The position numbers were made by a program, and so were the translations under genes. This document shows positions 1-27,480 of a stretch of 64,000 bases of DNA, piece by piece. Numbering within the stretch: the first letter of the stretch is position 1; every line of letters starts with the position of its first letter. The stretch comes from a virus. A model generated the notes under the pieces. The model saw only the letters and a program-made list of their open reading frames with translations, ran no database searches and was not told where the DNA came from. The DNA is taken from the IMG/VR virus record IMGVR_UViG_3300037153_000606, one strand, 5' to 3'.

Positions 1-51
1 GTGGGGTCCTAGTTCGCGAGTGAGGGTCGAGGGATCTTATGATGACCCGGC

Positions 52-116
52 GACGTGGCTAGGCGTGGCCAGGCTAGGCGAGTCAGGGCCCGGCACGGCG
101 AGGCACGGCATGGCAG
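52..116 (+). ncRNA. Solo GGY-NN guide-like unit (12 pentamers + GGCAG end)
   Basis: GAC-GT GGC-TA GGC-GT GGC-CA GGC-TA GGC-GA GTC-AG GGC-CC GGC-AC GGC-GA GGC-AC GGC-AT GGCAG; same grammar as the 15703-17275 array. Confidence 0.6.
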
Positions 117-2677
117 GACAGGCTGGGCTGTCGCCGGTTCAGGCTTCCTGGATCGGCGACAACCCCGACGAGCCGACGTTGCACTGGCGCGCGCCGAATC
201 TGCGATACGAGGTTCACATCAAGAACTACATGCCCAGCCGGGACCTGCGTGAGGGGTACGGCGCGGTGCCGCACCAGTACGTGTCGTTGCATGAGAACGA
301 TCTGCACAACCCGCACGCGAAGCCTTCGATCCGCAGTGTCGAGAACGGCGAGCTGCGCGCCGTCGACCAGTTCGGCAACCGGCCCGGCAAGCCGCCTGCG
401 CATGTGATGCGGCACATCAACGACGCCATCGACCAGGTGCGCCAGCACGCCGACACACACGCCGACCTGTACGGCCAGCTCGCCGAGCAGCAGGACATCC
501 GTGACGACCTGGCCGCCGTGCCGCACCGGATGCAGCAGGAGGAGCGCGGCCGGGCGATGTTCGAGAACCTGCTGCGCAGCGCCGAGGAGCGTGGCGAGCA
601 CGAGGCGGCGCTCACCCCGGCGCACGAATGGGCCAGACTGTATCTGGCCGCCGGGGCGGGGACTCCAGCCACAGCCCTGGTGGCCCTCAGATCGTTGGGA
701 ATGGCCCACGAGGCCGCCCGAGGTGTATTGGACTACGCGACCTCGTCCTGGGCCGCCTGCGGCGTTCTGGTGTCCGGGGAACCGGACACCATCATCGACG
801 TCGACCCGATCGCCAAGACTGCCGTGCTCTATGACGGCCGGACGGTCGACACCGATCTGGTGCGGTATGCGGCCAGTCATCCGGAGGGCGAACACCTCCG
901 GCATCGACGGCGGCATTTCGCACCGTCCTACGCCCCGGCCTACGGGATGGCCTGGTGCCCGTGGTGTCTCGGCGACGGGTGCGAGCGGTGTGACGACAAC
1001 GGTCAGGTGCCCGCCGACTCCCAGGACGCCGCCGCCGGTGCCGATACGGGTATGGGCGGCACCGACGGCGGCACCACGGCGGCCCTGCAGGAACAACCCG
1101 ATTTCGGTGACGACCTCTCTGGCGGTGAGGAGGATTTCGTCGGTGATCCCGCCGACGGTTCGGGGAGCCAACAGGTCACCGGCATGTGGCACCAGGCCGA
1201 CTACGAGGTCGGCGGGTTGGCCGCCGCCGGTCCCGCGCCGTCGTTCCGGCGTCGCACGCCGCATTCCGAGTCGGATAATCCCGGGTCGACCGGATTCGCG
1301 ACCTCCGCCGACCCGACCAACTGGACCTCCACGGTCGCCTCGCCGTCCAATTTGACCAACTGGAACGCGTCGTTGCACACCGCCAAGCAGGGCGACGAGG
1401 TGACGCATGCCGGAGTGGCGTTGAAGGCCGCAGACACCGGCAGGGTGCTGATGATCCAAAGGTCTAACAAGGACGAGAAGGATCCGGCGCGCGGTACCTG
1501 GGAGTTCCCGGGTGGGAGCCTCGAAGACGGTGACTCCACCTCGTTGCACGGTGCCATCCGGGAGTTCGAGGAGGAGGTCGGGTCGAAGTTCCCTGAGGGT
1601 GGCCACCTGACCCACGTGCATCGCAACAAGAACTATGTGCTGCACACGGTGGTTGTGCCGGAAGAATCCTCGATCAACTTCGCGGACGGCCGGAAAACCG
1701 TCAACCCTGACGACCCGGACGGCGATGATCACGAGCAGTCGGCATGGTGGCAGATCGGCGACGCGCAGAAGAACCCGGCGTTGCGCCGCGAGGTGAAGAA
1801 AACCCCGTGGGACGAGATCAAGAAGGCGGCGAATGTGACCTCGGTCACATTGTCAGGGGGTAATGGGGTCGCCGGTACCTATAAGCCCGCAGGGCGTACA
1901 ACGGCCGAGCTGCGCAGCGACCAGGAGAAGGTCCTGGACCCGGACTGGAAGACCGGGTACACCCACGCGATCGACGACCAGCCCTATCAGCTGCCCGACT
2001 ACACGCCCGGTGAGGGCGGCTTCATGCGGGCCACTCGGTATGCCCAGGGGTACTCCGACGGGCGTGACGACCAGGGCCAGAAGTGGGGCGTCCTGCACGA
2101 CATCCCCGAACCCGCGTTGCCGTCCACCGACGGTGCCAGCGAGGACGCCGATGATATGAGTATCGGCGGCGACGTCCCGAGCGGGGCGCAGCCGTGGCAG
2201 GAGCCGGACGCCGGGTTGCCGGTGGACCGGGACGAGCCGTGGGGCTTCGAGCAGGGTTATCCACCGCAGGGCGCACACCTTGTGGACGCCGATGACACCT
2301 CCACCGCCTCCGACGACCTGTCCAACGTGCCGTCCAGCACGCCGGACATCACCGCCAACGCGGTGTTGGCGCAGTTCTGGAAGTCGGCCGGAGGCGCGGC
2401 ATTGCGCGCCGACGTGACCGAGGGCAAGAACTCCGGCCCGGCCGGTGAATCCACACCCGGCCGGGCCGATGACATCACCGACGGTGACATCGCCGCCACC
2501 GCGCGGGCGGTGTTGGCCAAGATGGGGGCCAAGGACTTCTCCTTCGCCGAGCAGCGCGAGCTGATCGACGAGGGGTTGACCAGCAACGCGCGGGCCCGCA
2601 ACTTCGACGATCTCGACCTCGCAGGCACGCATTACGCGCACATGGCCGACGAGCAGGACGAGGATCTCTGGTTGTGA
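110..2677 (+). CDS. Large multidomain protein with NUDIX hydrolase domain, probably head-associated
   Basis: Nudix box WEFPGGSLEDGDSTSLHGAIREFEEEVG; CPWCLGDGCERC Zn-finger; acidic linkers. ORF is open from 20, but 20-109 overlaps the repeat unit, so ATG 110 is preferred; start uncertain. Confidence 0.75.
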   Translation: MAGQAGLSPVQASWIGDNPDEPTLHWRAPNLRYEVHIKNYMPSRDLREGYGAVPHQYVSLHENDLHNPHAKPSIRSVENGELRAVDQFGNRPGKPPAHVMRHINDAIDQVRQHADTHADLYGQLAEQQDIRDDLAAVPHRMQQEERGRAMFENLLRSAEERGEHEAALTPAHEWARLYLAAGAGTPATALVALRSLGMAHEAARGVLDYATSSWAACGVLVSGEPDTIIDVDPIAKTAVLYDGRTVDTDLVRYAASHPEGEHLRHRRRHFAPSYAPAYGMAWCPWCLGDGCERCDDNGQVPADSQDAAAGADTGMGGTDGGTTAALQEQPDFGDDLSGGEEDFVGDPADGSGSQQVTGMWHQADYEVGGLAAAGPAPSFRRRTPHSESDNPGSTGFATSADPTNWTSTVASPSNLTNWNASLHTAKQGDEVTHAGVALKAADTGRVLMIQRSNKDEKDPARGTWEFPGGSLEDGDSTSLHGAIREFEEEVGSKFPEGGHLTHVHRNKNYVLHTVVVPEESSINFADGRKTVNPDDPDGDDHEQSAWWQIGDAQKNPALRREVKKTPWDEIKKAANVTSVTLSGGNGVAGTYKPAGRTTAELRSDQEKVLDPDWKTGYTHAIDDQPYQLPDYTPGEGGFMRATRYAQGYSDGRDDQGQKWGVLHDIPEPALPSTDGASEDADDMSIGGDVPSGAQPWQEPDAGLPVDRDEPWGFEQGYPPQGAHLVDADDTSTASDDLSNVPSSTPDITANAVLAQFWKSAGGAALRADVTEGKNSGPAGESTPGRADDITDGDIAATARAVLAKMGAKDFSFAEQRELIDEGLTSNARARNFDDLDLAGTHYAHMADEQDEDLWL

Positions 2678-3006
2678 CCCGCCCGCAGCGCTGGACGCTG
2701 CACCCGGACGGTGAGACCGGCGCGAGTTGGGCAGTAGCGCGGGGCAACCGGCCCGTCGCCGCCGGTCTCACCCAGGCGCAGGCGCAACAACTCGTGCAGT
2801 CCCGGATACGTCCCGGGGAACGGGTGTTCAGCGCCGACCGTGACGGCTATCTTACGGAGCTGACACCACGGTCTCGGAGGGGGCGACCGCATGCGACTGT
2901 TGATCGACCTGTGGGTGGGCCTGTTCGGGACCCGGACGACCCGCCGGAACGCAGCGGTTGGCCGCGCCACGATTGGCGTCGGCACGACTGGGCCCGCCAC
3001 ACTTGA
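2674..3006 (+). CDS. Hypothetical protein
   Basis: GTGA overlap with upstream stop; 110 aa. Confidence 0.5.
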   Translation: MTRPQRWTLHPDGETGASWAVARGNRPVAAGLTQAQAQQLVQSRIRPGERVFSADRDGYLTELTPRSRRGRPHATVDRPVGGPVRDPDDPPERSGWPRHDWRRHDWARHT

Positions 3007-3009
3007 GCG

Positions 3010-3363
3010 GTGAACCCCTTCGTCGCGGCGTTGCCCGACGCCCAGGTGATGATCCGCAACCTGGTTCGGGCCGGGTACGACGCCAGCATTTCGATCGTTC
3101 ATGACCTCTTCGATCCGGACGGACTGCAGTGCCCGATGCGCCGTATCCGCGTCCGGATCGGTTTCGCGCAGGTCGACCAGGTCGTGTTGGACTGTGATGC
3201 GGAAGCGTTCATCCCCGATCCCGGTTTGGTGGAGTGGGTGGCCCGCGAGGCCGTGATGGAGTGTCTTCGTCAATGGCCTGCCGAGCAGGTGTTCGGTAGT
3301 GGGTCTGATTGGTTGTGCAACGAACCCTCGGATCAGAGCAGATTGCCCACGAAAGTAGTGTGA
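3010..3363 (+). CDS. Hypothetical protein
   Basis: 117 aa, tight packing, protein-like composition. Confidence 0.6.
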   Translation: MNPFVAALPDAQVMIRNLVRAGYDASISIVHDLFDPDGLQCPMRRIRVRIGFAQVDQVVLDCDAEAFIPDPGLVEWVAREAVMECLRQWPAEQVFGSGSDWLCNEPSDQSRLPTKVV

Positions 3364-4007
3364 CCCAGCCGCCACCCATCACCGCCGTCGTCGGAGCGGA
3401 GCAGCCGACCGTCGCGGTGTTGCCCGGTCCGCAGCAGCAGGTCGTGGTGTTGCCCCGCCAGCAGGGCCCGGTCGCGGTGGTCGGCGGCCCGAGCGCGTTG
3501 CGCGCCACGCTGGCCAGGACCGGTTCCCCGTCGGTCACCGTCGGGGCCAGCCAGGGCATCGACACCGATGCGGTGCACTGGCGCGGGCCGTGGACGCCCG
3601 GCACCCAGTACAACCGCAACGACCTGGTGACCTACCAGGACAAGCTCTGGATCTGTGACACGCCGACGAACACGATCGGGTTCTCGACCGGCTACTTCAC
3701 CGAGATCGGCGCGATCCACACCGTGACCGGGACATTGCAGGCCGCCGACCCGAGCGACCCTGCCGACTTGGTCACGCTGCGCTACCTGCAGACCTCCGTG
3801 CCGGAGACGGTGCCGATCTCCTACCGGCACGTGCAGTCCACCCCGGCGGCAGTGTGGACGATCACCCACAACCTGGGGTTCCAGCCCAACGCCACGGTGG
3901 TCGACTCGGCGGGCACCGAGGTGATCGGCGACCTGGACTACGTGGACGACCACACCGTGCGGATCACCTTCTCGGCCGCCTTCGGCGGCGAGTGTTACCT
4001 CTCGTGA
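3360..4007 (+). CDS. Virion structural protein (fibre/collar-like)
   Basis: GTG 3360 overlaps upstream TGA; WRGPWTPGTQYNRNDLVTY motif and C-terminal WTITHNLG..P.VVDSAG..V motif typical of fibre-associated proteins. Confidence 0.7.
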   Translation: MTQPPPITAVVGAEQPTVAVLPGPQQQVVVLPRQQGPVAVVGGPSALRATLARTGSPSVTVGASQGIDTDAVHWRGPWTPGTQYNRNDLVTYQDKLWICDTPTNTIGFSTGYFTEIGAIHTVTGTLQAADPSDPADLVTLRYLQTSVPETVPISYRHVQSTPAAVWTITHNLGFQPNATVVDSAGTEVIGDLDYVDDHTVRITFSAAFGGECYLS

Positions 4008-4027
4008 TGATCTCGTAGGAGACGGCG

Positions 4028-5491
4028 ATGCCCACCATGCTGGTCCCGCTGGACCTCAAGCAGAACGAGCTGCGCAACGCCTCCATCCAGAACTTGGGCA
4101 CCCCGCCGTCCAATCCGGTCAAGGGCCAGATGTACTTCGATACTGGGTCGAACACGCTCTACTACTGGGACGGCACCGCGTGGCAAGCGGTCAAGTCCGG
4201 CACCGGCGGGCCGCCGACCGGTGCGGCGGGCGGTGACCTCTCCGGCACCTACCCGAACCCGGGTGTCGTGAAGATCAACGGGACGACACTGTCCGGGCTC
4301 GCCACCGGCATCCTGAAGAACACCACCGCCACCGGTGTGCCGTCCATCGCCACGGCGTCCGACATCCCTACCGTCGCGGCCGGGGGCACCGGCCCGCTGA
4401 ATGCCTCTGACGCGTCCACCACGAACGCCCGCACGCCCATTGCGCACGCCACCACTCACCAGCCGGGTGGATCGGACCCGATGGCGGTCGACGCGGTGGT
4501 GGGCACCGGCAGCCTGCGCACCATCGGCACCGGTGCGCAGCAGGCGATGGCGGGCAACACGCGCCTGGACACCATCGCCATGCCGACCGGCAACGTCAAC
4601 ATCAACGGGCACTACATCAACAACGTGCTCGATCCGGTCAGCAGCAGCGACGCGGCGACGAAGAACTACGTCGACACCACCTCCCAGGGCCTGGACGCCA
4701 AAGCCAGCGTGAAGGCCGCGTCGGCCGGGTCGAACCTCACCCTGTCCGGCACGCAGACGGTGGACGGCATCGCGCTGGTGGCCAACGACCGGATCCTGGT
4801 CAAGGACCAGAGCACCACCGCGAACAACGGCATCTACGTGGTCGCGGCCGGAGCGTGGTCCCGCGCGACCGACATGGACTCCTGGGCCGAGGTCCCGGCG
4901 GCGTTCACCTTCGTGGAGCAGGGCACCGTCAACGCCGACACCGGCTGGGTGTGCACCTCCGACCAGGGTGGCACGCTGAATACCACCGCGATCACCTGGA
5001 CGCAGTTCTCCGGTGCCGGTCAGCTCACCGCCGGGGCCGGTCTGACCAAGACCGGCAACCAGATCGACGTGGTCTCCAGCAATGCCGCGATTGCAGTGGC
5101 GGCAGATGCTCTCGCACTGACCCTCGATACCAGCGGTGCAGGCAATGGCCTGCTCGTCACCTCGGGCGGACTCACGGCCAAGGTAGGTCCGGGGCTGACG
5201 TTGAGCGGCCTTGGCATCGTCGTTGATTTTGTCAACACAGCCGGGGCCGCGAATACCTGGATTCCGCGTAAGTGGACGGGCGCGCTGGCCGGGTCGGTCG
5301 CCTACGCCACCGGCGAGGTCTTCACGCACAACCTCGGAACCCGCGATATCCAGGTCGCTGTGGTCAACAACGGCTCGCCCTACAACGCCATCGAGGTGGA
5401 CTGGGAGGCGACCACGGTCAATACCGCCACCATCCGCTACAACTTCAACGTGCTCAACCCCACGGGGTACCGCCTAGTGATCGTGGGCTGA
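4028..5491 (+). CDS. Virion fibre/minor tail protein
   Basis: GGAG RBS; Gly/Thr/Ala-rich; DAATKNYVD and DRILVKDQ..NGIYVV motifs common in phage fibre proteins. Confidence 0.8.
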   Translation: MPTMLVPLDLKQNELRNASIQNLGTPPSNPVKGQMYFDTGSNTLYYWDGTAWQAVKSGTGGPPTGAAGGDLSGTYPNPGVVKINGTTLSGLATGILKNTTATGVPSIATASDIPTVAAGGTGPLNASDASTTNARTPIAHATTHQPGGSDPMAVDAVVGTGSLRTIGTGAQQAMAGNTRLDTIAMPTGNVNINGHYINNVLDPVSSSDAATKNYVDTTSQGLDAKASVKAASAGSNLTLSGTQTVDGIALVANDRILVKDQSTTANNGIYVVAAGAWSRATDMDSWAEVPAAFTFVEQGTVNADTGWVCTSDQGGTLNTTAITWTQFSGAGQLTAGAGLTKTGNQIDVVSSNAAIAVAADALALTLDTSGAGNGLLVTSGGLTAKVGPGLTLSGLGIVVDFVNTAGAANTWIPRKWTGALAGSVAYATGEVFTHNLGTRDIQVAVVNNGSPYNAIEVDWEATTVNTATIRYNFNVLNPTGYRLVIVG

Positions 5492-5493
5492 CC

Positions 5494-8400
5494 GTGCCCC
5501 GCAGTCTTGGCACTGTCAATATCCCGGCGCTCGCCTCGGCCCCGGCCAGTCCGGTCACCGGCGACCAGTACTACGACACTGGGACTAAGCGTCGCTACAT
5601 CTACAACGGCACCGCATGGGTGACTCCGGATGTGCTCGCGGGCGGCACTGCCGGGCAAGTGCTGACCAAGGTCGACGGCACCGACTACAACACGCAGTGG
5701 CAGACGATCAGCGGTGGCGGCGGTGGTTTCGCCGTCACTGACATCGCGGACGGAAGCACCTCGGCGAACACCTTGGTCAGCCCCGGTATCTACCGCATCC
5801 AGTTCACCCAACTCGGACTACCAAGTTGGTCGAGGTGGAACACCTCCAACGGAATCGGGTTCCTGGCCGTCTATAGCTTCGGGAGCAACATCACGCAGAT
5901 GGTCGAATCCTCGATCGCTCCGGCTAGTGGGTTTCCTGGCGGTGGCGAATTGTGGATGCGCTCCAGCGGCAATACGGGCTCGTCGTGGTCCGACTGGCAG
6001 TCGATCAACTCGGCCAATAGCAACCTGATCTCCGACTTCAACCTCGCTCGCGGGCCTGGCTATTACTCTTTGCCAGGGGACAACGCCAACGGTCCCGGTG
6101 TCCCGGGGAACGGGATGTTGTTCGTGGACACCGACATGTCACCGAAGTCGGCGTTCTGGGCTAACACCGCGCAGACGTGGTTCTGTTCTGCTGGTGGCAA
6201 CGCTGGGCAGGTATGGGCGCGGGCAGTGACCGCCGGTGGCGTGGCCGGGCCGTGGCGGCGCATCGACAGCGCGATGCTCACCGGGGGCAGCGCAGGCCAG
6301 GTGTTGTCCAAGGTCGACGGTTCCGACTACAACACGCAGTGGGCCACTCCGGCTACAGTTCCGGGATTCGCTGCACCAACGGCGGAAACTGCTTTCGGTA
6401 CATCTTCGGCAGCCGGTTCCTCGACTTCAGTGCCTCGTGCCGACCACACCCATGGCAACCCTGCGAATCCATTGCCGACAGGCGGTGCGGCAGGGCAGGT
6501 GTTGTCCAAGATCAGTTCTGCCGACTACAACACGACGTGGTCGACGCCGTTACCGGCATACCGGGCCACGGTCACCTCTGACATGGCCGACCAGGGCACC
6601 GACCCCCTGTTCACCCGGTGGCCGTCCCAGTACGGCGTCATCCTCGCCAACAGCGGCGGGCAGTACCGGCTGACCGCTGCCGCCTCGAACCAGTACACCG
6701 GGCTGAAGACCGATTTCACCAACACCCCGCTGGTGTTGGACTGGCTGGAGGCGAAGGTCACCGCAGATCTGGCCGGGACCGCGCCGCTGTTCTTCTTCGG
6801 GATCAAGGACTCCACCGACGGCAACCGGGCCGGGTTCACCCTGTCCGGCACCTCGGTCACCCCGGTGGACCAGACCAACTACACCGACAACCATCCGCAG
6901 GGCACGCCGGTCACGATCACCGCCAACACCCCGGTGTACCTGGCGTTGGCCATCGGGACCGACGCAGTCCGGTACGGCGAGGTCAACCCGAACCCGGCCA
7001 ACCTGTACATGTACACCTCCACCGACGGGTTGGTCTGGACCCGGCGCTACGGCAACACCGCACCCACCATCGCCGCCGCCTGCCGGATCGCCTTCGACGT
7101 ACAGAACTCTGGTGCAACCAGTCTGTTCTACATCTCCCAGATCAATCTTGTCTCGGTCGCGCCGTCCACGACGAGCCTGGATTCGGGTTGGCACTACCTC
7201 AACGCACCGGGTGAGCCGACGTGCACCTATCCGCCCTACGACCTGGCCGGGAACTCTTATTCGCCGGGCCGGTTCCGCCGCGACGGGGCGGGATGTGTCT
7301 GGCTCGACGTGATGATCGTGCCGCCCACCGCGAGTGCGACAGCGGTGTTGTTCACTCTGCCGCAAGGTTTCCGTCCGGCGTACTCGATCTTCCTGTGTGT
7401 GTCGCACACTTCTGGTCCGGCAGTTATCCGGGTGGACCCGAACGGCGACGTGGTGTTCGCCTACTGCGTTACGGGCACACTTACCTGGACCCATCTCGGT
7501 TCGGCCACCTTCATGGCTGAGGACGCGCAGACGGTCAACTGGGTAACACCGGCACTCGGTGGCAGTTGGACCAACCTGGGCACACTCGGCGGCAAGACCT
7601 GCGCCCCGGCCCGGTACTTCGTGGACGCGGCAGGCGACATCCATCTGTCCGGCATGATTGCAGGCGGCGGCACGGGTTCTGCCAACGCACCTTTCTCGTT
7701 GCCCGCAAACCTGTGGCCGAACGGCACGGACGGTGCGATCATCAATCAGCCGACGTGTTGCTCACCAGGTTCGGCAGGCGCGCAGGCCCGTGTCGATGTG
7801 AACAATGGCGCGTTGGGCGTCGTGGTCGTGAACAGCTACGGCGGCGGTGGCGGCAACGCCTGGGTGTCACTGGACGGCATCGTCATCGCCAACCCGAACG
7901 GCAACTGGTCAACCCCGGCGCTCATCAACTCGTGGGTCGCCTATTCGGCGTCCTATGTGACAACCCAGTTCTGTGTGAACAAGTTCGGCATCGCCGCGAT
8001 GCGCGGGCTCATCAAGTCCGGCAGTGGTGGTGCGGTCGCGGCGGCGAGTATGTCCACCGAGATCGCACCGCGCTACACAGTCATCTTCTTGGGATATGCC
8101 AACGCCGGATGTGCCCGTCTGGACACGATATATGACGGGCGGATCACGCCGAGCACCTATTGGAACTCCGGTACGAATGCCTTCGTCTCCACGGTGGGCC
8201 GATGGTGGTCCGAGGCCGAAGGTGGCGGAAGTGGTCCGCAGGGACCAACCGGCCCACAAGGACCGTCCGGCGGGCCGGTGCCGTCCGGGGGACAGACCGG
8301 GTTTGTGCTCGCCAAGAAGTCGGCCACCGATGGTGATGTGCAGTGGGCTAATCCAGTATCGGACACGGGTTGGAAAACGCTGCCCATCGCCAGCGGTTAT

Positions 8401-8715
8401 GCCGCCTACACGAACACACCTGCCCCGGCGTACCGGATCATCAGTGGTGTCGTCTATTTCCGGGGCCAGGTCGGCAAGACGGATGGCACGGCGTTCGCAG
8501 CCACCTCGTTCAACCCAGTCACCGCACTACCCGCCGAGGCGCAGCCGACCCTGGCGAGCGGTGGTTACGTGATGGCGGCGATAGCCACCAGTTCGGGCTC
8601 GATCACCGCACGGCTTTACATCGGCTATTCCAATACCGCCCAGATGACCACCAACATGAGTGCCACAGGAGCGGTCTACATCGACATCGGCGGGTTCTCC
8701 TATCCACTTGGCTGA
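5494..8715 (+). CDS. Modular tail fibre / receptor-binding protein
   Basis: GTG just after upstream stop; 4 copies of GGxxGQVLxKxxxxDYNTxW-type linker; short GPQGPT collagen stretch; fibre-tip-like beta modules. Confidence 0.8.
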   Translation: MPRSLGTVNIPALASAPASPVTGDQYYDTGTKRRYIYNGTAWVTPDVLAGGTAGQVLTKVDGTDYNTQWQTISGGGGGFAVTDIADGSTSANTLVSPGIYRIQFTQLGLPSWSRWNTSNGIGFLAVYSFGSNITQMVESSIAPASGFPGGGELWMRSSGNTGSSWSDWQSINSANSNLISDFNLARGPGYYSLPGDNANGPGVPGNGMLFVDTDMSPKSAFWANTAQTWFCSAGGNAGQVWARAVTAGGVAGPWRRIDSAMLTGGSAGQVLSKVDGSDYNTQWATPATVPGFAAPTAETAFGTSSAAGSSTSVPRADHTHGNPANPLPTGGAAGQVLSKISSADYNTTWSTPLPAYRATVTSDMADQGTDPLFTRWPSQYGVILANSGGQYRLTAAASNQYTGLKTDFTNTPLVLDWLEAKVTADLAGTAPLFFFGIKDSTDGNRAGFTLSGTSVTPVDQTNYTDNHPQGTPVTITANTPVYLALAIGTDAVRYGEVNPNPANLYMYTSTDGLVWTRRYGNTAPTIAAACRIAFDVQNSGATSLFYISQINLVSVAPSTTSLDSGWHYLNAPGEPTCTYPPYDLAGNSYSPGRFRRDGAGCVWLDVMIVPPTASATAVLFTLPQGFRPAYSIFLCVSHTSGPAVIRVDPNGDVVFAYCVTGTLTWTHLGSATFMAEDAQTVNWVTPALGGSWTNLGTLGGKTCAPARYFVDAAGDIHLSGMIAGGGTGSANAPFSLPANLWPNGTDGAIINQPTCCSPGSAGAQARVDVNNGALGVVVVNSYGGGGGNAWVSLDGIVIANPNGNWSTPALINSWVAYSASYVTTQFCVNKFGIAAMRGLIKSGSGGAVAAASMSTEIAPRYTVIFLGYANAGCARLDTIYDGRITPSTYWNSGTNAFVSTVGRWWSEAEGGGSGPQGPTGPQGPSGGPVPSGGQTGFVLAKKSATDGDVQWANPVSDTGWKTLPIASGYAAYTNTPAPAYRIISGVVYFRGQVGKTDGTAFAATSFNPVTALPAEAQPTLASGGYVMAAIATSSGSITARLYIGYSNTAQMTTNMSATGAVYIDIGGFSYPLG

Positions 8716-8728
8716 GATGAGGGGCCTG

Positions 8729-8760
8729 ACTGCCTCCTCCCGGCCCTGACCGGCGAAGTA
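8729..8760 (+). promoter_or_regulatory. Putative phage late promoter, CCTG-N22-GAAGTA family
   Basis: ACTG at 8729 and GAAGTA at 8755; same spacing at seven other intergenic sites. Confidence 0.55.
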
Positions 8761-8774
8761 CGGAGGAGGCCGCC

Positions 8775-8921
8775 ATGCTGCGCAAGTACGGCACCCTGGA
8801 GGTGTTGTCGGCCGCGATCGGCCAGATCCCCCGGGGCACCCGGTCACTGGACCCCCGGTTGGGGCACCGTGCGGTGTTCTCCTTCGTGCCCCGGGCCGGG
8901 TTCCTCTACGTCCGGTCCCGG
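8775..8921 (+). pseudogene. Orphaned original 5' end of the protease/scaffold gene
   Basis: [11 protein letters not shown]; encodes ...HRAVFSFVPRAGFLYVRSR, repeated as HRAVFSFVPRPGFLYVRSR in the 9466 ORF; similarity ends where the HNH gene begins. Confidence 0.8.
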
Positions 8922-9439
8922 GTGCTGCGGTATCGCTGGCTGGCCTCTTGTCGACAGGTTCGGCAAGCCCGGACACCCTTGTACAGGTATGTGTTCTCGG
9001 CGGTGAACTCGTGACCATGCTTACAGTGCGTCTTGGCGAGATTCCAGGCTTGAACCGAGTTGCCGCGCAGTGTGTTCTCCCGCGAGGTGACCGGTCGGAC
9101 ATGGTCAGGATTGACGCAGGCCCGGTTGTCGCAGACGAAGTGGTCGAGTACTTTTCCGACCGGTACGGGTCCGTATTTCCGTTCATAGTAGAACTTGGTC
9201 GCCTTGACGGTCTTGTGTCCCTTGGCGGGGTCGTTGGTCAGTCCGTACCCGTCGGCATTGAGGTGCTTCTGCCAGATCCAGCACCCGTTGCCCGCGACGA
9301 TGTAGTCGATCTTTCGGGTGTTATGTCCGTGGACGAAGCGCATCGGTTCTCCACGCACCCAGCCGAATCTTCGGTGGGACTGTGGAGCGATCTTGGTGCG
9401 TTGTCCGCAGCCACACTCGCAGAGCCCATCACTTGCCAT
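8906..9439 (-). CDS. HNH homing endonuclease
   Basis: CECGCG N-terminus; CWIWQ..GYG..LDHFVCDNRACVNPDH..T.REN; KTHCKHGH..CRTC C-terminal domain. Confidence 0.9.
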   Translation of the reverse strand: MASDGLCECGCGQRTKIAPQSHRRFGWVRGEPMRFVHGHNTRKIDYIVAGNGCWIWQKHLNADGYGLTNDPAKGHKTVKATKFYYERKYGPVPVGKVLDHFVCDNRACVNPDHVRPVTSRENTLRGNSVQAWNLAKTHCKHGHEFTAENTYLYKGVRACRTCRQEASQRYRSTRDRT

Positions 9440-9465
9440 GTGATGAATCTTTGCGGAGGTGAGTG

Positions 9466-12400
9466 ATGTTCCGCAAGTTTGCTTCTGCTGAAGTGTTGGC
9501 CGTTGCAAAAGGTGAGTCATTGAAAAAGGATGCTCATCGAGCGGTCTTTTCATTTGTACCTCGACCTGGGTTTCTCTATGTAAGGTCTAGAAGTATATCT
9601 AGTCGCTGCAACGACAACTACGATTTTTTCGGCGCGGACGAGATCGCCAAGTCCTACCGGACCTTCATCGGCAAGCCGGTGTTCGTCAACCACAACAACT
9701 CCGACCACCGCCGGGCCCGGGGGATGGTCATCGACGCGGTCCTGCACCGGGACCGCAACGCCGACGGGTCCCCGGATTTCTGGGTCGAAGCGCTCATGGA
9801 GGTCGACGCCGAGACCTACCCGAAACTCGCCAAGTCGATCCTGTCCGGCGAGATCGACCGCACCTCGATGGGATGCGACGTCGAGTTGTCCAAGTGTTCC
9901 TACTGCGGCAACGAGGCGACCTCGCCGTTGGAGTACTGCCAGCACATTCCCGGCAAGAAGGGCAAGCGGATCTACAAGATGCTTCCCGACGGACGCCGGG
10001 AAGGACAACTCGTCTTCGAGATCTGTTCTGGTTTGTCGTTCTTCGAGAACTCACTGCTGGTGGAGCCTCCGGCAGATCCGACGGCTTATTTCCTTGGGCA
10101 GCCGGTATTGGGACCTGGTTTAGAGCATCTCAGGCAGAAAGCAGCGAATCTGCAGGCCGTTCTGGAGGAACAGCCTGCCGCGCCACGCCATGACATGCCT
10201 AGCCGAGCCTCGACAAACCAAGCCCGGCCGTTGCAGCGTACGGCAGCGGCTGGTGACGACTGGCATGTCGGGATGGACCCTGAGCGCCGCCGCAAGGCCG
10301 AGGAGGCCGCAGGCAAGCTCTGGGAGGGGTTCCACCAGATCATGGATCCGGGGTCGACGCCCGCCTCACGCGTCTCCGACCGCAACATGCGGGTGATGAA
10401 CAACCTGCAGAACCTGGGATATCAGCCGCATCACATCAAGTTCGAGGACGACGAGGACGAAGGGCATCCGTACGCCCACATCCAGGGACCCAAGGGGTGG
10501 TACGGCGTCGACTACGGCGGCCCGCACATGGAGATCCGGCACCAGGCCACCGGCAACGAGTCCCACGACTTGATCAACTTGCAGCACTACGACAAGGAGA
10601 CCCGCGAGCAACACCGGATGCCCGGGTACGGACCGCACGAGGCCGAGGCGGACCTGCACCACTGGGTACACGGCGACCCGGAGGAGACTGGCGGGAGCGC
10701 CGAGTACCTGGAGCACAACGACCCGCGCATCAAGCGGTGGATCGGCCGCCACCAGGCCGCGTTGCAGGTCGAGGCGGTCACCCAGGAGCATGCCGAGGAC
10801 TACCTCAACGAGCACCCGATCAGCCCCACACACATCCTGAGCCGGGTCGAGCAGGCCGCCTCGGACCCGGCCACCCTGCACTCCGGGATGAAGTGGTACG
10901 ACGACGCACACGGGATGGCCAAGACCATGGCCAGCCACCACGGCGTGCCGTTGCAGCACGCGGCAGGTGCACTGGGGGTCTACTCCTCCAGCTCGGCCCC
11001 GGCCCCGAACTTCCACATGGCCTCGATCGCCCTGCATGCCGGAAAGGGGATCTGGGCCCGTGAGTCCGGCGGTTCCGCCGAACACGGTTACAAGGGATCC
11101 CCGATGGCGTCCGAGGCCGATGCCAAGAAGGTGGACCGGATCTTCTCCGGAGAGCACTACAACGACGTCATCGGTTCGTCCAAGACCAAGCACTACGCCC
11201 GGCTGATCCACGACCCGTCCAACGATCACGACGTGGTCATCGACCGGCACGCGGTGGCGGCGGCGATCGGTCATTACGGCAACTCCGGCGAGCCGTACAA
11301 CAACGTGGCCGGGCCGATGGAGAACGTCAACGCCAAGGGGGCGGGCAAGCTCTACGACCGGTTCTCCGACGCCTACCGGCAGGCCACCCACCACCTGAAC
11401 ACGTCGCCCGAGTACAGCCCTCTGCGCAAGCACATGGTCCGGTCCGGACTGCTCGGCGAGGGCGAGAAGATCAAGCCGCACCAGGTGCAGGCGCTGGCCT
11501 GGATCGCGCAGAAGGACATCAGCGACCAGCATGCCCGCAACGACATGACCAACGCCAACCAGCGCGCCATCGACGACTGGCAGAACCACTACACCAGCCG
11601 GTACGGGGTGGACGCGCACCACCCGGTGTCCGGCAAGGGGTTCTACGGCCAGGAGCCGACCCCGGCGAAAGCGGCGAGCATGCAGCGCCTCTCCTACGGG
11701 GAAACGAAAGCCCCTCAGGACGTCGACACGCTGCGCGACGAGCGGTGCGCGATCTGCGGTAACGACACGGCCTACGACGGGCGGGAGTGCCTGGTCTGCG
11801 GGTACATCGCGCCGCCCAAGGCGTTGGGTGACCCGGACGTCGACAAGGCCAAGCATCTGGACGAGTTGAAGCAGTCGGTCGACGACGCGCTCTCCGAGGT
11901 CGACCCGTCCCGGCCGGGTGCGGACTTCGACCCCGGCGACCTGGACGAGATCCAGGCCGAGATCGGTGAGGCGGGCACCCCGCCGATGGTGTGCCCGAAC
12001 TGCGACTCGGTCTTCGACCCGGCCGAGGAAGAGATCAATGCCGGTGATACCTGCCCGGACTGCGGTCAGGCCGAGGTGGCGGAGGCCGAGCCGGAGGAGG
12101 GCGAGGGAGACGCCCAGGATGTGGCCGAGGACGAGGCCACCGAGGGGCTGCCCGGCGAACAGGCCGAGGACCAGGACGTGCCCAGCGGGGACGAGGACGA
12201 AGACGCCGACGAGGACGAGGAAGACGAGGACGGGGAACCAGACGACGAAGACGAGGAGGACGAGGAAGACAAGCGCAGACGTCGTCCTGTTGCCAGCCGG
12301 TCCGCGACCTCGAAGTACCGACCACCATCGAAGGGGTACGACATGCAGAAGGCACTGGCGGCACTGGCCGAGCTGCAGGCCCTGGTCGAGCACCAGCAGC

Positions 12401-13263
12401 ACGAGAACCTGAAGCTGCAGCGGCGGCTCGCCGCCAAGGACAGCCAGATCCAGCGGTTGACCTACGGTCTGCAGGCGATCGCCCAGCATCTCGGCCCCGA
12501 CGTGGACACCCTGGTGCGTTCGGCCATGCTGCGCAAGCGGGCCGACGAGCAGAACCCGGCCCAGCCGGTGCCCGAGCCCGCGCCGGAACCGCCGACCGAG
12601 TCCACCGTGCAGGCCGAGACGCCGGAGGCGTTCGCCGACGTCACCGCGCCGGGCATGGTGCCGGGGTCCACCCAGGACGTGGCCGCCGACGCCGTCTCCA
12701 CCGCGTACACGCCCGGTCAAGACGTGGGCGCGCCGCCACTGCGCCAGTTGGTCGACGTGACCCGGCCCATCGACGGCACCCAGGGACCGCGCCCGTTAAG
12801 CGAGACCAAGACCAACGTGGACGTGCGGGTGGGCAACCCGATGAACCCGCAGACCGCGTTCCCGCTCGGCGGTGACTTCGCCCAGGCGCAGCGCACCGGT
12901 TCGGTCAACGGCGGCAGCGGGGACCTGAAGACGATGGCCTCGATCCGGCTGGCCAGGCTGCGCATCGCGGCCAACATCGAGGACGGCGAGGACCTGGCCA
13001 TCGCGCAGCGCATCGCCGCCGAGCTGGACGTCCCGGCGATCAACGCCGAGATCGCCACGCTGTCCAACGTGATCAAGGCGAGTGCGGCGCGCCGCCAGCA
13101 GCAGCCACCGCCGCGCGGAGTGCCGCCGCGCCCGGCTCCGGGGGTGGGCCGCACCGTTCCGCCGATGACCCGTTCGGCCGGGTTGCGCACCGCATCGCGG
13201 CCGGACGCCGAGGACGCCGACCTGGCGCTGGTTTTCCTCTCCGAGCAAGCCCTGTCCAGCTGA
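9466..13263 (+). CDS. Capsid maturation protease / scaffold polyprotein with inserted domains
   Basis: GGAGGT RBS (GTG 9463 or ATG 9466); FIGKPVFVNH, TSMGC, FFENSLLVEPPADP protease-like motifs; Zn fingers, acidic tract, coiled coil; lies upstream of decoration and capsid genes. Confidence 0.75.
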   Translation: MFRKFASAEVLAVAKGESLKKDAHRAVFSFVPRPGFLYVRSRSISSRCNDNYDFFGADEIAKSYRTFIGKPVFVNHNNSDHRRARGMVIDAVLHRDRNADGSPDFWVEALMEVDAETYPKLAKSILSGEIDRTSMGCDVELSKCSYCGNEATSPLEYCQHIPGKKGKRIYKMLPDGRREGQLVFEICSGLSFFENSLLVEPPADPTAYFLGQPVLGPGLEHLRQKAANLQAVLEEQPAAPRHDMPSRASTNQARPLQRTAAAGDDWHVGMDPERRRKAEEAAGKLWEGFHQIMDPGSTPASRVSDRNMRVMNNLQNLGYQPHHIKFEDDEDEGHPYAHIQGPKGWYGVDYGGPHMEIRHQATGNESHDLINLQHYDKETREQHRMPGYGPHEAEADLHHWVHGDPEETGGSAEYLEHNDPRIKRWIGRHQAALQVEAVTQEHAEDYLNEHPISPTHILSRVEQAASDPATLHSGMKWYDDAHGMAKTMASHHGVPLQHAAGALGVYSSSSAPAPNFHMASIALHAGKGIWARESGGSAEHGYKGSPMASEADAKKVDRIFSGEHYNDVIGSSKTKHYARLIHDPSNDHDVVIDRHAVAAAIGHYGNSGEPYNNVAGPMENVNAKGAGKLYDRFSDAYRQATHHLNTSPEYSPLRKHMVRSGLLGEGEKIKPHQVQALAWIAQKDISDQHARNDMTNANQRAIDDWQNHYTSRYGVDAHHPVSGKGFYGQEPTPAKAASMQRLSYGETKAPQDVDTLRDERCAICGNDTAYDGRECLVCGYIAPPKALGDPDVDKAKHLDELKQSVDDALSEVDPSRPGADFDPGDLDEIQAEIGEAGTPPMVCPNCDSVFDPAEEEINAGDTCPDCGQAEVAEAEPEEGEGDAQDVAEDEATEGLPGEQAEDQDVPSGDEDEDADEDEEDEDGEPDDEDEEDEEDKRRRRPVASRSATSKYRPPSKGYDMQKALAALAELQALVEHQQHENLKLQRRLAAKDSQIQRLTYGLQAIAQHLGPDVDTLVRSAMLRKRADEQNPAQPVPEPAPEPPTESTVQAETPEAFADVTAPGMVPGSTQDVAADAVSTAYTPGQDVGAPPLRQLVDVTRPIDGTQGPRPLSETKTNVDVRVGNPMNPQTAFPLGGDFAQAQRTGSVNGGSGDLKTMASIRLARLRIAANIEDGEDLAIAQRIAAELDVPAINAEIATLSNVIKASAARRQQQPPPRGVPPRPAPGVGRTVPPMTRSAGLRTASRPDAEDADLALVFLSEQALSS

Positions 13264-13312
13264 CCGTGCTACCCGCCAAGCAATAGCAACGGCGTAGAGA
13301 GGAAAGATCACA

Positions 13313-13828
13313 ATGCTGAGGACGCCACTCAACCTCAACTACATGAAGCGCACCATCCGGCCGCTCTACGCCAACACCCAGGCCACCCCGAAGGGCATGT
13401 TCCTGGACCCGGCGTGGGCGTTCACGGTGGACATCTACCCCGGCATGGCGATGCAGAAGAACGCGGGCCAGCTGGTCGCGCCGCTCGGCTCCGGCGACCC
13501 GTACGGCCTGTCGGACTTCTTCGAGGCCCCCACCCTCGGGATCCGTCAGATCACCGATTCAGGCATCAACGCCTGCGCGGTGTGGGTGCTCGATCCCGAT
13601 GCGGAGTTCCAGGTGCTGCCTCCGGCCTTCGACACCACGCTGGCCTGGGCCGAGGCGGGCGGAGGTGCGATGACCCCGGTGTTCGCCTACACCAGCGGCG
13701 CGAAGCAGGGCCAGCTGGCGATCGGCACCGGTGCAGGCATCGGCACCAAGGCGGTGGCCCGGCTGCTCAACGTGTCCGGCACCGGGGCCAATTCAGTGAT
13801 CACCATCGGCGGGCTGCCGAGCAGCTAA
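13313..13828 (+). CDS. Capsid decoration / head structural protein
   Basis: 171 aa between scaffold and capsid genes; RBS AGAGG; assigned by synteny. Confidence 0.65.
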   Translation: MLRTPLNLNYMKRTIRPLYANTQATPKGMFLDPAWAFTVDIYPGMAMQKNAGQLVAPLGSGDPYGLSDFFEAPTLGIRQITDSGINACAVWVLDPDAEFQVLPPAFDTTLAWAEAGGGAMTPVFAYTSGAKQGQLAIGTGAGIGTKAVARLLNVSGTGANSVITIGGLPSS

Positions 13829-13873
13829 GACGCCCGGACCATCGTTCCCGGCCCGAGAATCAGGAGAAGCGCA

Positions 13874-14848
13874 ATGACCCAGCTGATGGTCCCGCAGGGC
13901 GTCCAGGTCCCGATGAAGTCGGACGACTACGTCGCCCAGATCATGGCCAGGCACCAGGGCAAGACAGCCACCCACAACCAGAAGCTGCAGGCCATCGCGC
14001 GGGTGCTCTCCGACGAGGTCTCCGGCTTCAAGCGGCTCGGTGTCGGCATGATCGGCCCGATCCAGCTCAAGCTGCGTTATCAGGGCATCACCCGCAACGT
14101 GCTGGTCGAGGACCCGGTCACGCCGGGCACCCCGGTCGAGTACGACGTGTGGGACGACCTGGGCCAGGCCTTCATCCTGTCCGGCAACGAGGGCGAAGTC
14201 GACATCACGATCTTCGAGGGCAAGCGGGTGCGGGTGGACTTCTACCGCATCGCGTCGCAGGCCCAGATCCGCAAGGAAGACCTGATGTACCTGCGCATCA
14301 ACGCCGTCGAGCAGGCGCAGGACGAGACCAAGCAGTCCATCCTCAAGCAGGAGGACTCCCGGCTGATCATCGTGTTGCAGGCGGCGCTGACCAACTACGC
14401 GACCCGGCCGGACCACGTGATCACCCCGAACCACACGGTGTCGGAGACCTCGGGCTACTACACCCCGGCCTCGTTCTATCAGGCGGTCGCGCAGACCGAC
14501 ATGCACGAGCTGGTGTCCAGCCGCATGCTGGTCAACCCGATGGACTACCGGGACTTCTTCAAGTGGGACATCAACACCACCGGTTGGGCGTTCAAGGACC
14601 GCGTGGTGGCCGGTGAGACGATCACCAGCTTCGGCGAGTTCCAGGTGCAGCGCTCGATCATGGTGCCGCAAAAGTCGCTCTACCTGCTGCCCGAGCCGAA
14701 CTTCCTCGGCGTCTTCCCGGTCCTGTACAGCTTGGACGTGGAGGAGAACCACCAGGTGGCGCGCTTCCTGCGCGGTTGGGTGTTCGACGAAATGGTTTGC
14801 CAATTGGTTCTCAACCCGAGAGGCATAGCGGCTGTTACCAAGCCGTGA
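13874..14848 (+). CDS. Major capsid protein
   Basis: 324 aa; AGGAG RBS; strongly GC3-biased codons; C-terminal LVLNPRGI; synteny; followed by terminator. Confidence 0.8.
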   Translation: MTQLMVPQGVQVPMKSDDYVAQIMARHQGKTATHNQKLQAIARVLSDEVSGFKRLGVGMIGPIQLKLRYQGITRNVLVEDPVTPGTPVEYDVWDDLGQAFILSGNEGEVDITIFEGKRVRVDFYRIASQAQIRKEDLMYLRINAVEQAQDETKQSILKQEDSRLIIVLQAALTNYATRPDHVITPNHTVSETSGYYTPASFYQAVAQTDMHELVSSRMLVNPMDYRDFFKWDINTTGWAFKDRVVAGETITSFGEFQVQRSIMVPQKSLYLLPEPNFLGVFPVLYSLDVEENHQVARFLRGWVFDEMVCQLVLNPRGIAAVTKP

Positions 14849-14860
14849 GACCATAGTTTT

Positions 14861-14907
14861 ACGTTACTACCCCTTCCCATTCGATGGTGAAGGGGTAGTA
14901 TCGTTTT
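14861..14907 (+). terminator. Hairpin + T-tract after capsid gene, covering the RBS of the next gene
   Basis: TACTACCCCTTC (14865-76) pairs with GAAGGGGTAGTA (14889-900), then TTTT, then ATG 14908. Confidence 0.75.
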
Positions 14908-15738
14908 ATGCCTCGGCCGCCGTCTCCAACGACTTCGAAGACGTGTCAACGTGACGGTTGCGATAACCGATTCGAAGTCACCCAAGCCAAAGCTCAGAGG
15001 GATCGTCGATTTTGTTCGAAAGATTGCTCGAACAAAGCCACCGCGCTAATCCGTGGCGCTTCGTATCGAGCCAGTCATGGGTATAAGCCGCCAGTTTGTC
15101 CATGTGGTCGTTCTATCCAACCGAGACCGGGCCAGCGGTACGTCTATTCGAAGAAATATTGCGACATGGAGTGTCGTGCTCGATTTAGCCCGAGGCGACA
15201 ACCCAATCCTGAAAAGTGGGGTTCATACACGTGTCGCGTGTGTGGCACTGAATTCACCCGCCGGAAGAACTCTCGTAATGCCAAGATCTATTGCAGCCTT
15301 GCGTGTGCCAACAAGGAGACCAAGAAGAAGCATCACATCGTGTTGCGCGATGACGATGTTGTGTTCGACAGTGCCTGGGAGGCGTTCTTTTACGGCGCGT
15401 GCAAGATCGCGAAGATCCCGATCGAACGGTTCGACCGAGATCATGGTGTTGCCTACGACCCAGAATACCTGGATCGGTGGTACGCGCCAGACTTCTGGTT
15501 GCCCGACGTCCAGGCATGGGTCGGTCGCACCGGCGTTGCGATCGAAATCAAAGGTGTTGAAGACGACCGCGACGAAACCCGGTGGACCGCCTTCCGGTCG
15601 ACGGGAGTCGACCTGGTGGTGATGGACCGGTACCGGATGGAGAACCTGTCTGCACACTCGTTGTCCGACATCCTGCGAGTCGCCACGATGAGGGACAATC
15701 CCGCCTTGCCATGCCAAGCCGCGACACGCCTAGCCTAA
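14908..15738 (+). CDS. Free-standing endonuclease: Cys-rich zinc-finger repeats + PD-(D/E)XK domain
   Basis: Repeated CxxC..(F/Y)CS..C units; FDSAWEAFF..YAPDFWLP..IEIKG; lower-GC 5' half; 3' end runs into the array. Confidence 0.75.
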   Translation: MPRPPSPTTSKTCQRDGCDNRFEVTQAKAQRDRRFCSKDCSNKATALIRGASYRASHGYKPPVCPCGRSIQPRPGQRYVYSKKYCDMECRARFSPRRQPNPEKWGSYTCRVCGTEFTRRKNSRNAKIYCSLACANKETKKKHHIVLRDDDVVFDSAWEAFFYGACKIAKIPIERFDRDHGVAYDPEYLDRWYAPDFWLPDVQAWVGRTGVAIEIKGVEDDRDETRWTAFRSTGVDLVVMDRYRMENLSAHSLSDILRVATMRDNPALPCQAATRLA

Positions 15739-22471: not shown

Positions 22472-22563
22472 CCGCACTCATCGTGACTATCTGGGTCGTC
22501 GTCGCGGTCATGGTCCTGTACGTGGTCGGTGAGCACTGGCTGGACCACAAGCGCGACGATTGA
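22468..22563 (+). CDS. Small membrane peptide (31 aa)
   Basis: GTGA overlap; MTALIVTIWVVVAVMVLYVVGEHWLDHKRDD, one hydrophobic helix. Confidence 0.5.
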   Translation: MTALIVTIWVVVAVMVLYVVGEHWLDHKRDD

Positions 22564-22599
22564 CAACTCACGTTCTACAACTCATCTTGCGCCATGGTG

Positions 22600-22648
22600 T
22601 ATAATGGTGCTGTACGTTTCATCAACTACTTGAGGAGCCACACTCATG
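22600..22648 (+). promoter_or_regulatory. Early-type promoter and start-associated sequence
   Basis: TATAATGGTGCT; GAGGAGCCACACTCATG. Confidence 0.55.
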
Positions 22649-26970: not shown

Positions 26971-27480
26971 ATGGTCAACCCGACATGGGACACCAGCAGG
27001 GTCGAGGACGTCACCGAGCACTTCTGGAGTCGGGTCGACGGATCCGGTGGGCAGGACGCTTGTTGGCCGTGGACTGGCCCTCCGATGAAGTCGGGATACG
27101 GGCAGCTCAACCTCAAGGCGCTCGGCGGCCACGTCTACGCCCACCGGATGGCCTTCATCCTGTTCTACGGGCCGATCCCGGATGAGGCGTCCGTCGATCA
27201 CGAGTGTCACAACCGCGATCACTCCTGTGCGGGCGGGAACAGTTGTCCGCACCGCCTGTGCTGCAACCCGAAGCACCTGAAGGCCAAGACGCGGGGCGAG
27301 AACGTCAAGGCCGCCTACGAGGGCCGCCAGCGCGGATCCAACATCACGCACTGCCCGCACAACCACGAGTACACGCCGGAGAACACCAAGACCACCGGCC
27401 ACGGTCGGCAATGCCGGACCTGCCTGCGGAAGAGAGCCAACGAGTACTACGCCCGGAAACGAGCCGAGCGCAATAGTTGA
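26971..27480 (+). CDS. HNH homing endonuclease
   Basis: FWSRVD..CWPWTG..GYG..AHRMAF..VDHECHN..CCNPKHL..EN; THCPHNH..CRTC. Confidence 0.9.
   Translation: MVNPTWDTSRVEDVTEHFWSRVDGSGGQDACWPWTGPPMKSGYGQLNLKALGGHVYAHRMAFILFYGPIPDEASVDHECHNRDHSCAGGNSCPHRLCCNPKHLKAKTRGENVKAAYEGRQRGSNITHCPHNHEYTPENTKTTGHGRQCRTCLRKRANEYYARKRAERNS

Follow-up and report, generated by a model that had tools for sequence, protein, structure and literature searches.

In the 64,000-nucleotide stretch analysed here, from IMG/VR virus record IMGVR_UViG_3300037153_000606 (hereafter the window), the gene for a head-maturation protease has two starts, and an HNH endonuclease gene on the opposite strand lies between them. The upstream start is a displaced native N-terminus, here called the stub, and the downstream start is a synonymously recoded replacement that opens the live gene. 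We consider it likely that this locus is an end-replacing homing cassette, composed of the antisense HNH gene and a short 5′ gene segment that carries a ribosome-binding site (RBS), an ATG and approximately 50 codons recoded at nearly all synonymous positions. Its parts are listed below, with the G+C content of third codon positions abbreviated as GC3.

8716 to 8774, plus strand: native 5′ leader of the protease gene with its RBS (GGAGGAGG, 8762-8769), now ahead of the stub; identified by leader conservation.
8775 to 8921, plus strand: stub, the displaced native N-terminus, 49 codons, GC3 0.96; identified from the sequence and an N-terminus profile.
8906 to 9439, minus strand: intact free-standing HNH endonuclease gene, 177 amino acids; identified by Pfam and PHROG.
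9440 to 9465, no strand: divergent spacer, 26 nt, containing the new RBS GGAGG (9455-9459) of the live protease gene; identified from the sequence.
9466 to 9615, plus strand: replacement N-terminus of the cassette, approximately 50 codons, GC3 0.26-0.45; identified by codon use and identity to relatives.
9466 to 13263, plus strand: live chimeric protease gene, 1265 amino acids, with a head-maturation protease domain, a DUF7178 domain and an acidic scaffold-like tail; identified by PHROG and Pfam.

The ATG at 8775 opens MLRKYGTLEVLSAAIGQIPRGTRSLDPRLGHRAVFSFVPRAGFLYVRSR and is followed for 49 codons, ending in ...HRAVFSFVPRAGFLYVRSR at 8921. The stub breaks off at 8921/8922, from where the frame continues as antisense-HNH sequence to a stop at 9014, giving 79 amino acids in total. 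Against a profile of 90 homologous N-termini the stub scores an E of 1e-13. Moreover, the approximately 60 bases 5′ of 8775 (GGACTGCC...CGAAGTACGGAGGAGGnCGCCATG) are conserved with the protease-gene leaders of L082, L083 and L084, three loci that lack the HNH gene. What precedes 9466 is HNH 5′-end sequence in antisense, common only to L088, another HNH-bearing contig. Over its core block the stub shares 84-86% of its bases with L082, L083 and L084, and 11-13 of 17-18 same-residue codons are identical. As its leader is conserved with those of HNH-free relatives, 8775 is the native protease start, and the interval from 8922 to approximately 9615 has been inserted.

The HNH gene runs on the minus strand from an ATG at 9439-9437 to a TAG at 8908-8906, and its last five codons together with the TAG (8906-8921) are the antisense of the codons for YVRSR in the stub. 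Its product matches Pfam HNH_3 (PF13392; E 4.7e-8) and the PHROG HNH endonuclease family (E 1.2e-41). Homologues align over all 177 amino acids from MASDG, including a CxCGCG zinc-finger-like N-terminus. The catalytic (D-H, N, H) and the Cys/His metal-binding columns are invariant among these homologues, and for this reason the gene looks active. It has a GC3 of 0.74, against 0.87 for the protease gene, and is the lone minus-strand gene within a co-oriented late block, the genes of 20-15738 being otherwise all on the plus strand. The public gene call for this protein (P0121) starts from an internal Met and comprises 145 amino acids, 32 residues short. The window also holds a second HNH-type gene, at 27031-27471 on the plus strand, with 26-32% identity to that of 9439..8906 (tblastn E 8e-15). 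A scan of genome contigs for the HNH family returned distant matches only.

The live gene opens at ATG 9466 with MFRKFASAEVLAVAKGESLKKDAHRAVFSFVPRPGFLYVRSRSISSRCNDN. The first ~210 residues of its 1265-residue product match the head-maturation protease family phrog_18299 (PHROG, E 4e-27), and the DUF7178 domain lies downstream of the protease domain (Pfam, E 7e-21). When positions 8865-8921 of the stub are set against 9535-9591 of the live gene, 18 of 19 residues are identical, as are 39 of the 57 bases, and only 3 of 18 same-residue codons are spelled alike. GC3 over this 19-codon core block is 0.95 in the stub versus 0.26 in the live copy. The latter has a z-score of approximately -4 and is equalled in only 4 of 4369 windows of 19 codons in neighbouring genes. 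The lowest-GC island of the whole 64 kb is found at 9421-9661 (0.42, against a mean of 0.66). From approximately 9616 GC3 is back at 0.9-1.0, and codon use is normal by 9616-9645 or thereabouts. Compared with L082, L083 and L084, the live core block has 17-18 of 19 residues the same, a base identity of 68-72% and only 3-4 codons in common. Along the live gene, relatives share 0.50-0.73 of the bases over 9466-9585 and, by 9616-9675, 0.8-0.97; the right boundary of the replacement N-terminus falls between 9586 and 9645. With this sharp boundary in codon use and identity, the live gene is a chimera, in which a cassette-borne start is fused in frame to the native core.

The recoded N-terminus is, at the protein level, nearest to the window's own clade (L084 77%, L083 72%). 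This excludes the import of the new start from a distant low-GC phage, and would fit a cassette that has long circulated within the clade. Starting from a GC3 near 0.95, synonymous difference is AT-rich by default, since two-fold synonymous changes must go to A or T, as must two of three four-fold changes. Selection merely to differ would predict a GC3 of roughly 0.2-0.3, matching the value observed.

We compared 90 protease loci, representing 77 distinct lineages. In the HNH-free loci L082, L083, L084 and L001 a single GC3-rich N-terminus is joined directly to (S/A)ISSRCNDN; the first three are the closest HNH-free relatives of the window, with 79-83% protein identity. No HNH-free relative with two copies of the N-terminus was seen among the loci examined. 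A local GC3 dip at the YVRSR.ISS codons was observed in the HNH-free loci L083 (3001-3200), L171, L189 and L177/L178 (~2501-2700), with the spelling AGA AGT ATT TCT in L083. These could be cleavage-resistant alleles or the footprints of a lost cassette.

Much of this anatomy had been read in a first-pass annotation of the same DNA, made without database searches. The GC-rich native start with its RBS, broken off near 8921, the antisense HNH gene that takes its stop codon from inside the remnant, and the new start that re-encodes the N-terminus in AT-rich synonymous codons before normal codon use returns are all confirmed by the coordinates and GC3 values above; the interrupted gene is, as had been supposed, a head gene. 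Its expectation that HNH-free relatives would join the N-terminus directly to ISSRCNDN, and that none would carry both copies, agrees with the loci examined here. A late promoter, which it had placed at the native start, was not recovered: a scan of 8500-9800 for sigma-70-type promoters found no site on either strand. Two weak terminator-like sites in the same interval are at the level of chance.

The HNH gene is distributed sporadically and is tied to this site. It is carried by only 5 of the 77 distinct protease lineages. Homologues with 60-74% identity were found in five other assemblies, L085, L086 (identical to L092 and L206), L087, L093 and L088, and each homologue of at least 60% identity with readable surroundings is arranged head-to-head with this protease gene. 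L088, at the end of a contig of 708 nt, has an HNH gene of 74% identity in the same head-to-head layout, together with an MFRKFAAA start, and the spacer between the HNH and protease genes is 28 nt in both L085 and L087. Homologues near 52% identity are found in unrelated gene arrays, and therefore the architecture is not general to the HNH_3 family. Such a sporadic, site-specific distribution is what would be expected of a homing element and not of a packaging nuclease.

Recoding accompanies the HNH gene across these lineages. The drop in GC3 from the gene body to the 5′ zone has a median of -0.23 in HNH-bearing alleles versus -0.03 in HNH-free alleles (nominal Mann-Whitney p = 2e-4), and over a 66-nt core the HNH-bearing alleles are more distant from the consensus (nominal p = 0.001). 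In all HNH-bearing alleles the GC3 minimum is over the conserved HRAVF..YVRSR.ISSR codons. The consensus spelling of ISSR is ATC TCC TCC CGG; L093 and L206 (=L086) have ATa TCa TCa aGa, from which L085 (ATa TCg TCa aGa) and L087 (ATt TCa TCa aGa) are each one base removed. The window itself has ATa TCt agt CGc.

A second stub was found in L085, a 155-kb contig of an NCBI assembly, together with its own HNH gene and its own recoded live start. The L085 stub has a GTG start behind GGGAGGGAG, continues to ...AAHRAVFDYEPKPGFLYVRSRMIS and matches the N-terminus profile with an E of 1e-18; the last 17 codons and the stop of the HNH gene are read from it. GC3 is 0.38 in the live start versus 0.76 in the stub, and 5 of the 16 same-residue codons are identical. 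The stub is nearest to the N-terminus of L093, and the live start to that of L086. L085 is a second, independent case of a stub with a recoded start. Both stubs end at the YVRSR/xISS codons, at which the HNH-bearing alleles are recoded. The ends lie three codons apart, after RSR in the window and after RSRMIS in L085, and thus likely bracket the site of the break.

End replacement by a homing nuclease is known from yeast and from fungal mitochondria. The WHO elements of Torulaspora and Lachancea home into FBA1 and replace its 3′ end at each homing, a logic that has been demonstrated experimentally (Coughlan et al. 2020, PMC7282813). As in WHO elements, the unit in the window consists of an endonuclease gene and a replacement gene end that would confer resistance, with no splicing; the displaced native end persists as a fragment, which in WHO is the proposed homology arm; and the target gene is chimeric, its divergence shifting abruptly at the site of the cut, which for the window is putative. 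The window differs in that the 5′ end is replaced, so that the cassette also brings an RBS and a start codon, in that its nuclease is a small antisense HNH protein and not an intein-derived LAGLIDADG/zinc-finger protein, and in that its host is a dsDNA phage, for which cleavage is presumed. A similar pattern is produced by the mORFs of fungal mitochondria, which make hybrid genes of atp6 in Allomyces macrogynus and of atp6, atp9, cox2 and nad3 in Glomus; there the native end is ~91-98% identical to relatives, compared with 64-81% for the inserted end, and the differences are mostly synonymous (PMC3630166). In both systems the native core and the inserted end form one reading frame and the native end lies beyond the endonuclease ORF, and the values for the window, 84-86% (stub) versus 68-72% (live), follow the same pattern. 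However, mORFs replace C-terminal ends, encode GIY-YIG or LAGLIDADG nucleases and reside in organelle genomes. Duplication of an atp9 N-terminus along with a free GIY gene is also mentioned (PMC7487136).

Two further groups of elements resemble the locus in part. Intronless homing by free-standing phage endonucleases is known from the seg and mob genes of T4, and nrdA/mobE of Aeromonas phage Aeh1 is reportedly the case in which a ribonucleotide reductase gene was split by an endonuclease. The likeness lies in a free-standing nuclease gene in or beside an essential gene, cutting of the nuclease-free allele, co-conversion of a linked resistant allele and a sporadic distribution. However, in these systems no gene end is duplicated, the gene being either untouched or split into two working peptides. 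Integrase-borne elements, such as phage 21 and e14 in icd and those integrated in tRNA genes, carry a replacement gene end. Here too the gene that was interrupted is made whole by the incoming DNA, which has a synonymously diverged copy of the end, but this comes about by site-specific recombination at att sites in place of nuclease-induced homologous repair, and it is 3′ ends that are replaced. We know of no RBS-dependent 5′ replacement. An endonuclease-split ribonucleotide reductase gene is cited by Barth et al. 2023 (PMC10448857), and this recent survey of phage homing endonucleases gives only intron, intein, split-gene and free-standing modes. No published phage example of end-replacing homing was found in the searchable literature, and a 5′-end phage version would appear to be an addition to the yeast and mitochondrial cases. 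Of the features that define the WHO/mORF class, the window has the chimeric live gene and a persisting native end that is the more relative-like of the two, whereas the end replaced is not the 3′ end. Judged by this architecture, the locus would work like that class as a 5′ mirror-image variant, outside both named families and with a nuclease of a different family.

From the above we infer that the native site is cut and the recoded one immune, and that the cassette homes by the following route of repair. In a mixed infection, the HNH endonuclease would cut the native GC-rich allele near the YVRSR/xISS codons. The right-hand end would be repaired on the donor by means of the homologous sequence 3′ of the recoded tract, crossing over at approximately 9586-9645. 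The left-hand end could not pair with the recoded copy, because base identity is only 68%; it would instead pair with the donor stub, as in the WHO model, or be joined illegitimately just past the HNH 3′ end. The recipient's own start would thereby be pushed upstream and become a dead stub that keeps its native leader. Since the cassette brings its own translation start, the gene would be rebuilt in frame without splicing; replacement of a 5′ end means that the cassette must supply an RBS and an ATG, which it does. The recoding plausibly makes the resident allele uncuttable, and would also remove the homology for recombination between stub and live copy, by which the HNH gene would be deleted. 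Transcription of the live gene probably begins upstream and reads through the antisense HNH gene.

Several points weigh against this reading. The HNH-bearing lineages form approximately three independent groups, {L085, L086, L093}, L087 and {window, L088}, and therefore both p-values given above overstate independence. Identity of the HNH protein tracks that of the protease, which long vertical co-residence would explain as well as frequent homing would. Decayed stubs were sought in L086, L087, L093 and L088 with a profile search in all six frames, and none was found; with three to four HNH-bearing loci lacking one, the stub is not obligatory, and the stubless loci may be homing endonuclease genes of the ordinary intergenic kind. 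The low-GC3 tract of L085 continues for ~40 codons beyond the junction, further than is required for a recognition site or for the duplicated part. In the live copy of the window, AT-shifted amino-acid changes (extra Lys) suggest AT pressure beyond silent sites. Lastly, we found no close (>90%) HNH-free siblings by which the pre-insertion sequence could be fixed, and an IMG/VR search with the stub peptide for the pre-insertion allele gave a best match of 48% only.

The AT-rich spelling may alternatively be regulatory. As the 26-nt spacer cannot hold two promoters, the HNH promoter must lie within the start of the protease gene, and the promoter and leader would then occupy its first ~150 nt on the other strand; an AT-rich, weakly structured start may in addition aid translation from the new RBS. 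The AT-rich tract at 9440-9615 coincides exactly with the region that precedes the HNH start, and the extra Lys codons extend the AT pressure to replacement sites. However, no promoter-like sites were detected on either strand. Moreover, in L085 and L087 the first ~8 codons, beside the HNH start, are rich in G+C, and the dip has its centre at HRAVF..YVRSR.ISSR, 20-50 codons in; in L086 and L093 it is confined to the junction codons. We think a regulatory origin of the spelling unlikely; as a contributing factor it may act alongside a homing cassette.

Somewhat more doubtful is a one-off accident, in which an intergenic free-standing HNH gene, like those of L086, L087 and L093, was copied by faulty and partly illegitimate repair. 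The stub would then be no homology arm, and the codon use would reflect the history of the donor, with no selection for immunity or against recombination. Most HNH-bearing loci lack a stub, the two stubs end at different codons with the HNH 3′ ends truncated differently, as independent illegitimate joins would produce, and the low-GC3 tract of L085 goes well beyond the junction. Set against this, in both cases only a few codons separate the join from the HNH C-terminus and the HNH is left intact, all HNH-bearing alleles dip in GC3 at the same codons, and the recoded N-terminus is clade-native in protein, which makes a foreign low-GC donor unlikely.

We give very little weight to the possibilities that the HNH protein is a packaging-associated or otherwise domesticated phage nuclease, or that the arrangement is an assembly chimera. 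HNH proteins beside head and packaging genes do serve DNA packaging in some phages, and the tracking of protease identity by HNH identity would suit such a role, but the gene occurs in only 5 of the 77 lineages and its orientation is opposite to that of the late block in which it lies. An assembly chimera is contradicted by the same architecture in the unrelated assembly of L085, an NCBI genome record, and by the recording of the HNH protein on three contigs. An intein does not describe the locus, in which the HNH gene is on the opposite strand and stops lie between it and the host gene. Least credible of all is a self-splicing intron (8922 to ~9591) with an endonuclease gene, with splicing that would bring the first start next to ISSRCNDN in the mRNA: joining 8921 to 9592 would keep the frame, but no group I or II Rfam model matches even at E values up to 10, the HNH gene is antisense, within the supposed intron are an entire RBS, an ATG and a homologous N-terminus alignable with relatives from residue 1, and the G at 8921 and A at 9591 misfit the boundary nucleotides of group I introns, which are usually U and G.

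The first-pass annotation had called the locus a splice-free cleave-and-rescue element. The first part stands, both on the search with intron models and because the live ORF is complete from residue 1, which makes splicing unnecessary. Cleave-and-rescue serves fairly as an analogy; in nature, however, the nearest model is end-replacing homing, as in WHO elements and mORFs, in which a copy of the cassette enters the allele that was cut.

The surroundings of the locus are those of an actinobacterial phage. The window has a G+C content of 65.9%, and a megablast search of the phage collection found no close DNA relatives of it. The HNH protein of the window is recorded on contigs of up to 149,996 bases, indicating a phage-like element of approximately 150 kb. 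The protease gene is flanked by the following genes, taken from the gene list of the window.

5272 to 8715, plus strand: fibre-like gene, 1147 amino acids.
3′ of the 9466-13263 gene, plus strand: two head-type genes.

The DUF7178 protease has 593 homologues in the set searched. The homologue of the protease gene in Gordonia phage Stormageddon carries the annotation capsid maturation protease, and others are found in Rhodococcus phage Finch and in Mycobacterium myoviruses including I3 and Cali. The motif ISSRCNDN, which is otherwise invariant, reads ISSRTNDN in approximately one third of the protease homologues (loci L154-L233) and has A or V in a few, and therefore its Cys is dispensable. Protease homologues also occur on contigs of 150-157 kb from assemblies of Streptomyces and Kitasatospora isolates. 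Among these (P0040-P0073) one is labelled a plasmid and some have ParB/RepB/Spo0J-family annotations, which suggests that these phages persist as extrachromosomal phage-plasmids. Downstream of the 324-amino-acid head-type gene, a strong hairpin (CTACCCCTTC...GAAGGGGTAG) is followed by a T run at 14850-14905 on the plus strand, and is probably the terminator of a protease-to-capsid operon. Further along the window, a near-consensus sigma-70-type promoter (TTGACA, 17 nt, TG-TATAAT) lies in one of its few low-GC islands, at 22560-22610 on the plus strand, just 5′ of an ATG at ~22646.

Read as a homing cassette, the locus shows how a homing endonuclease can live in an essential phage gene with neither intron nor intein, and it parallels in nature the engineered cleave-and-rescue gene drives. 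With an intact nuclease, a native stub with a conserved leader, extreme recoding, relatives that lack the HNH and a second, independent case within the gene family, it also provides a clean system for the study of nuclease targeting, immunity by synonymous recoding and anti-recombination divergence in phage-phage competition. For annotation there is a risk that the stub at 8775 is miscalled as a gene start or as a small gene, which is easily done, and a chimeric 5′ end can mislead phylogenies of head genes. More tentatively, we propose that this is a natural phage element that cuts a rival's essential gene and carries a re-spelled rescue copy. The HNH endonuclease would disable or convert the head-protease gene of co-infecting relatives, and the new start would have been selected for near-maximal synonymous distance from native alleles, blocking both cleavage and recombination. 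End replacement would then be a general fourth way into an essential phage gene, beside introns, inteins and gene splitting, and, if this is true, would also be a driver of mosaic 5′ ends.

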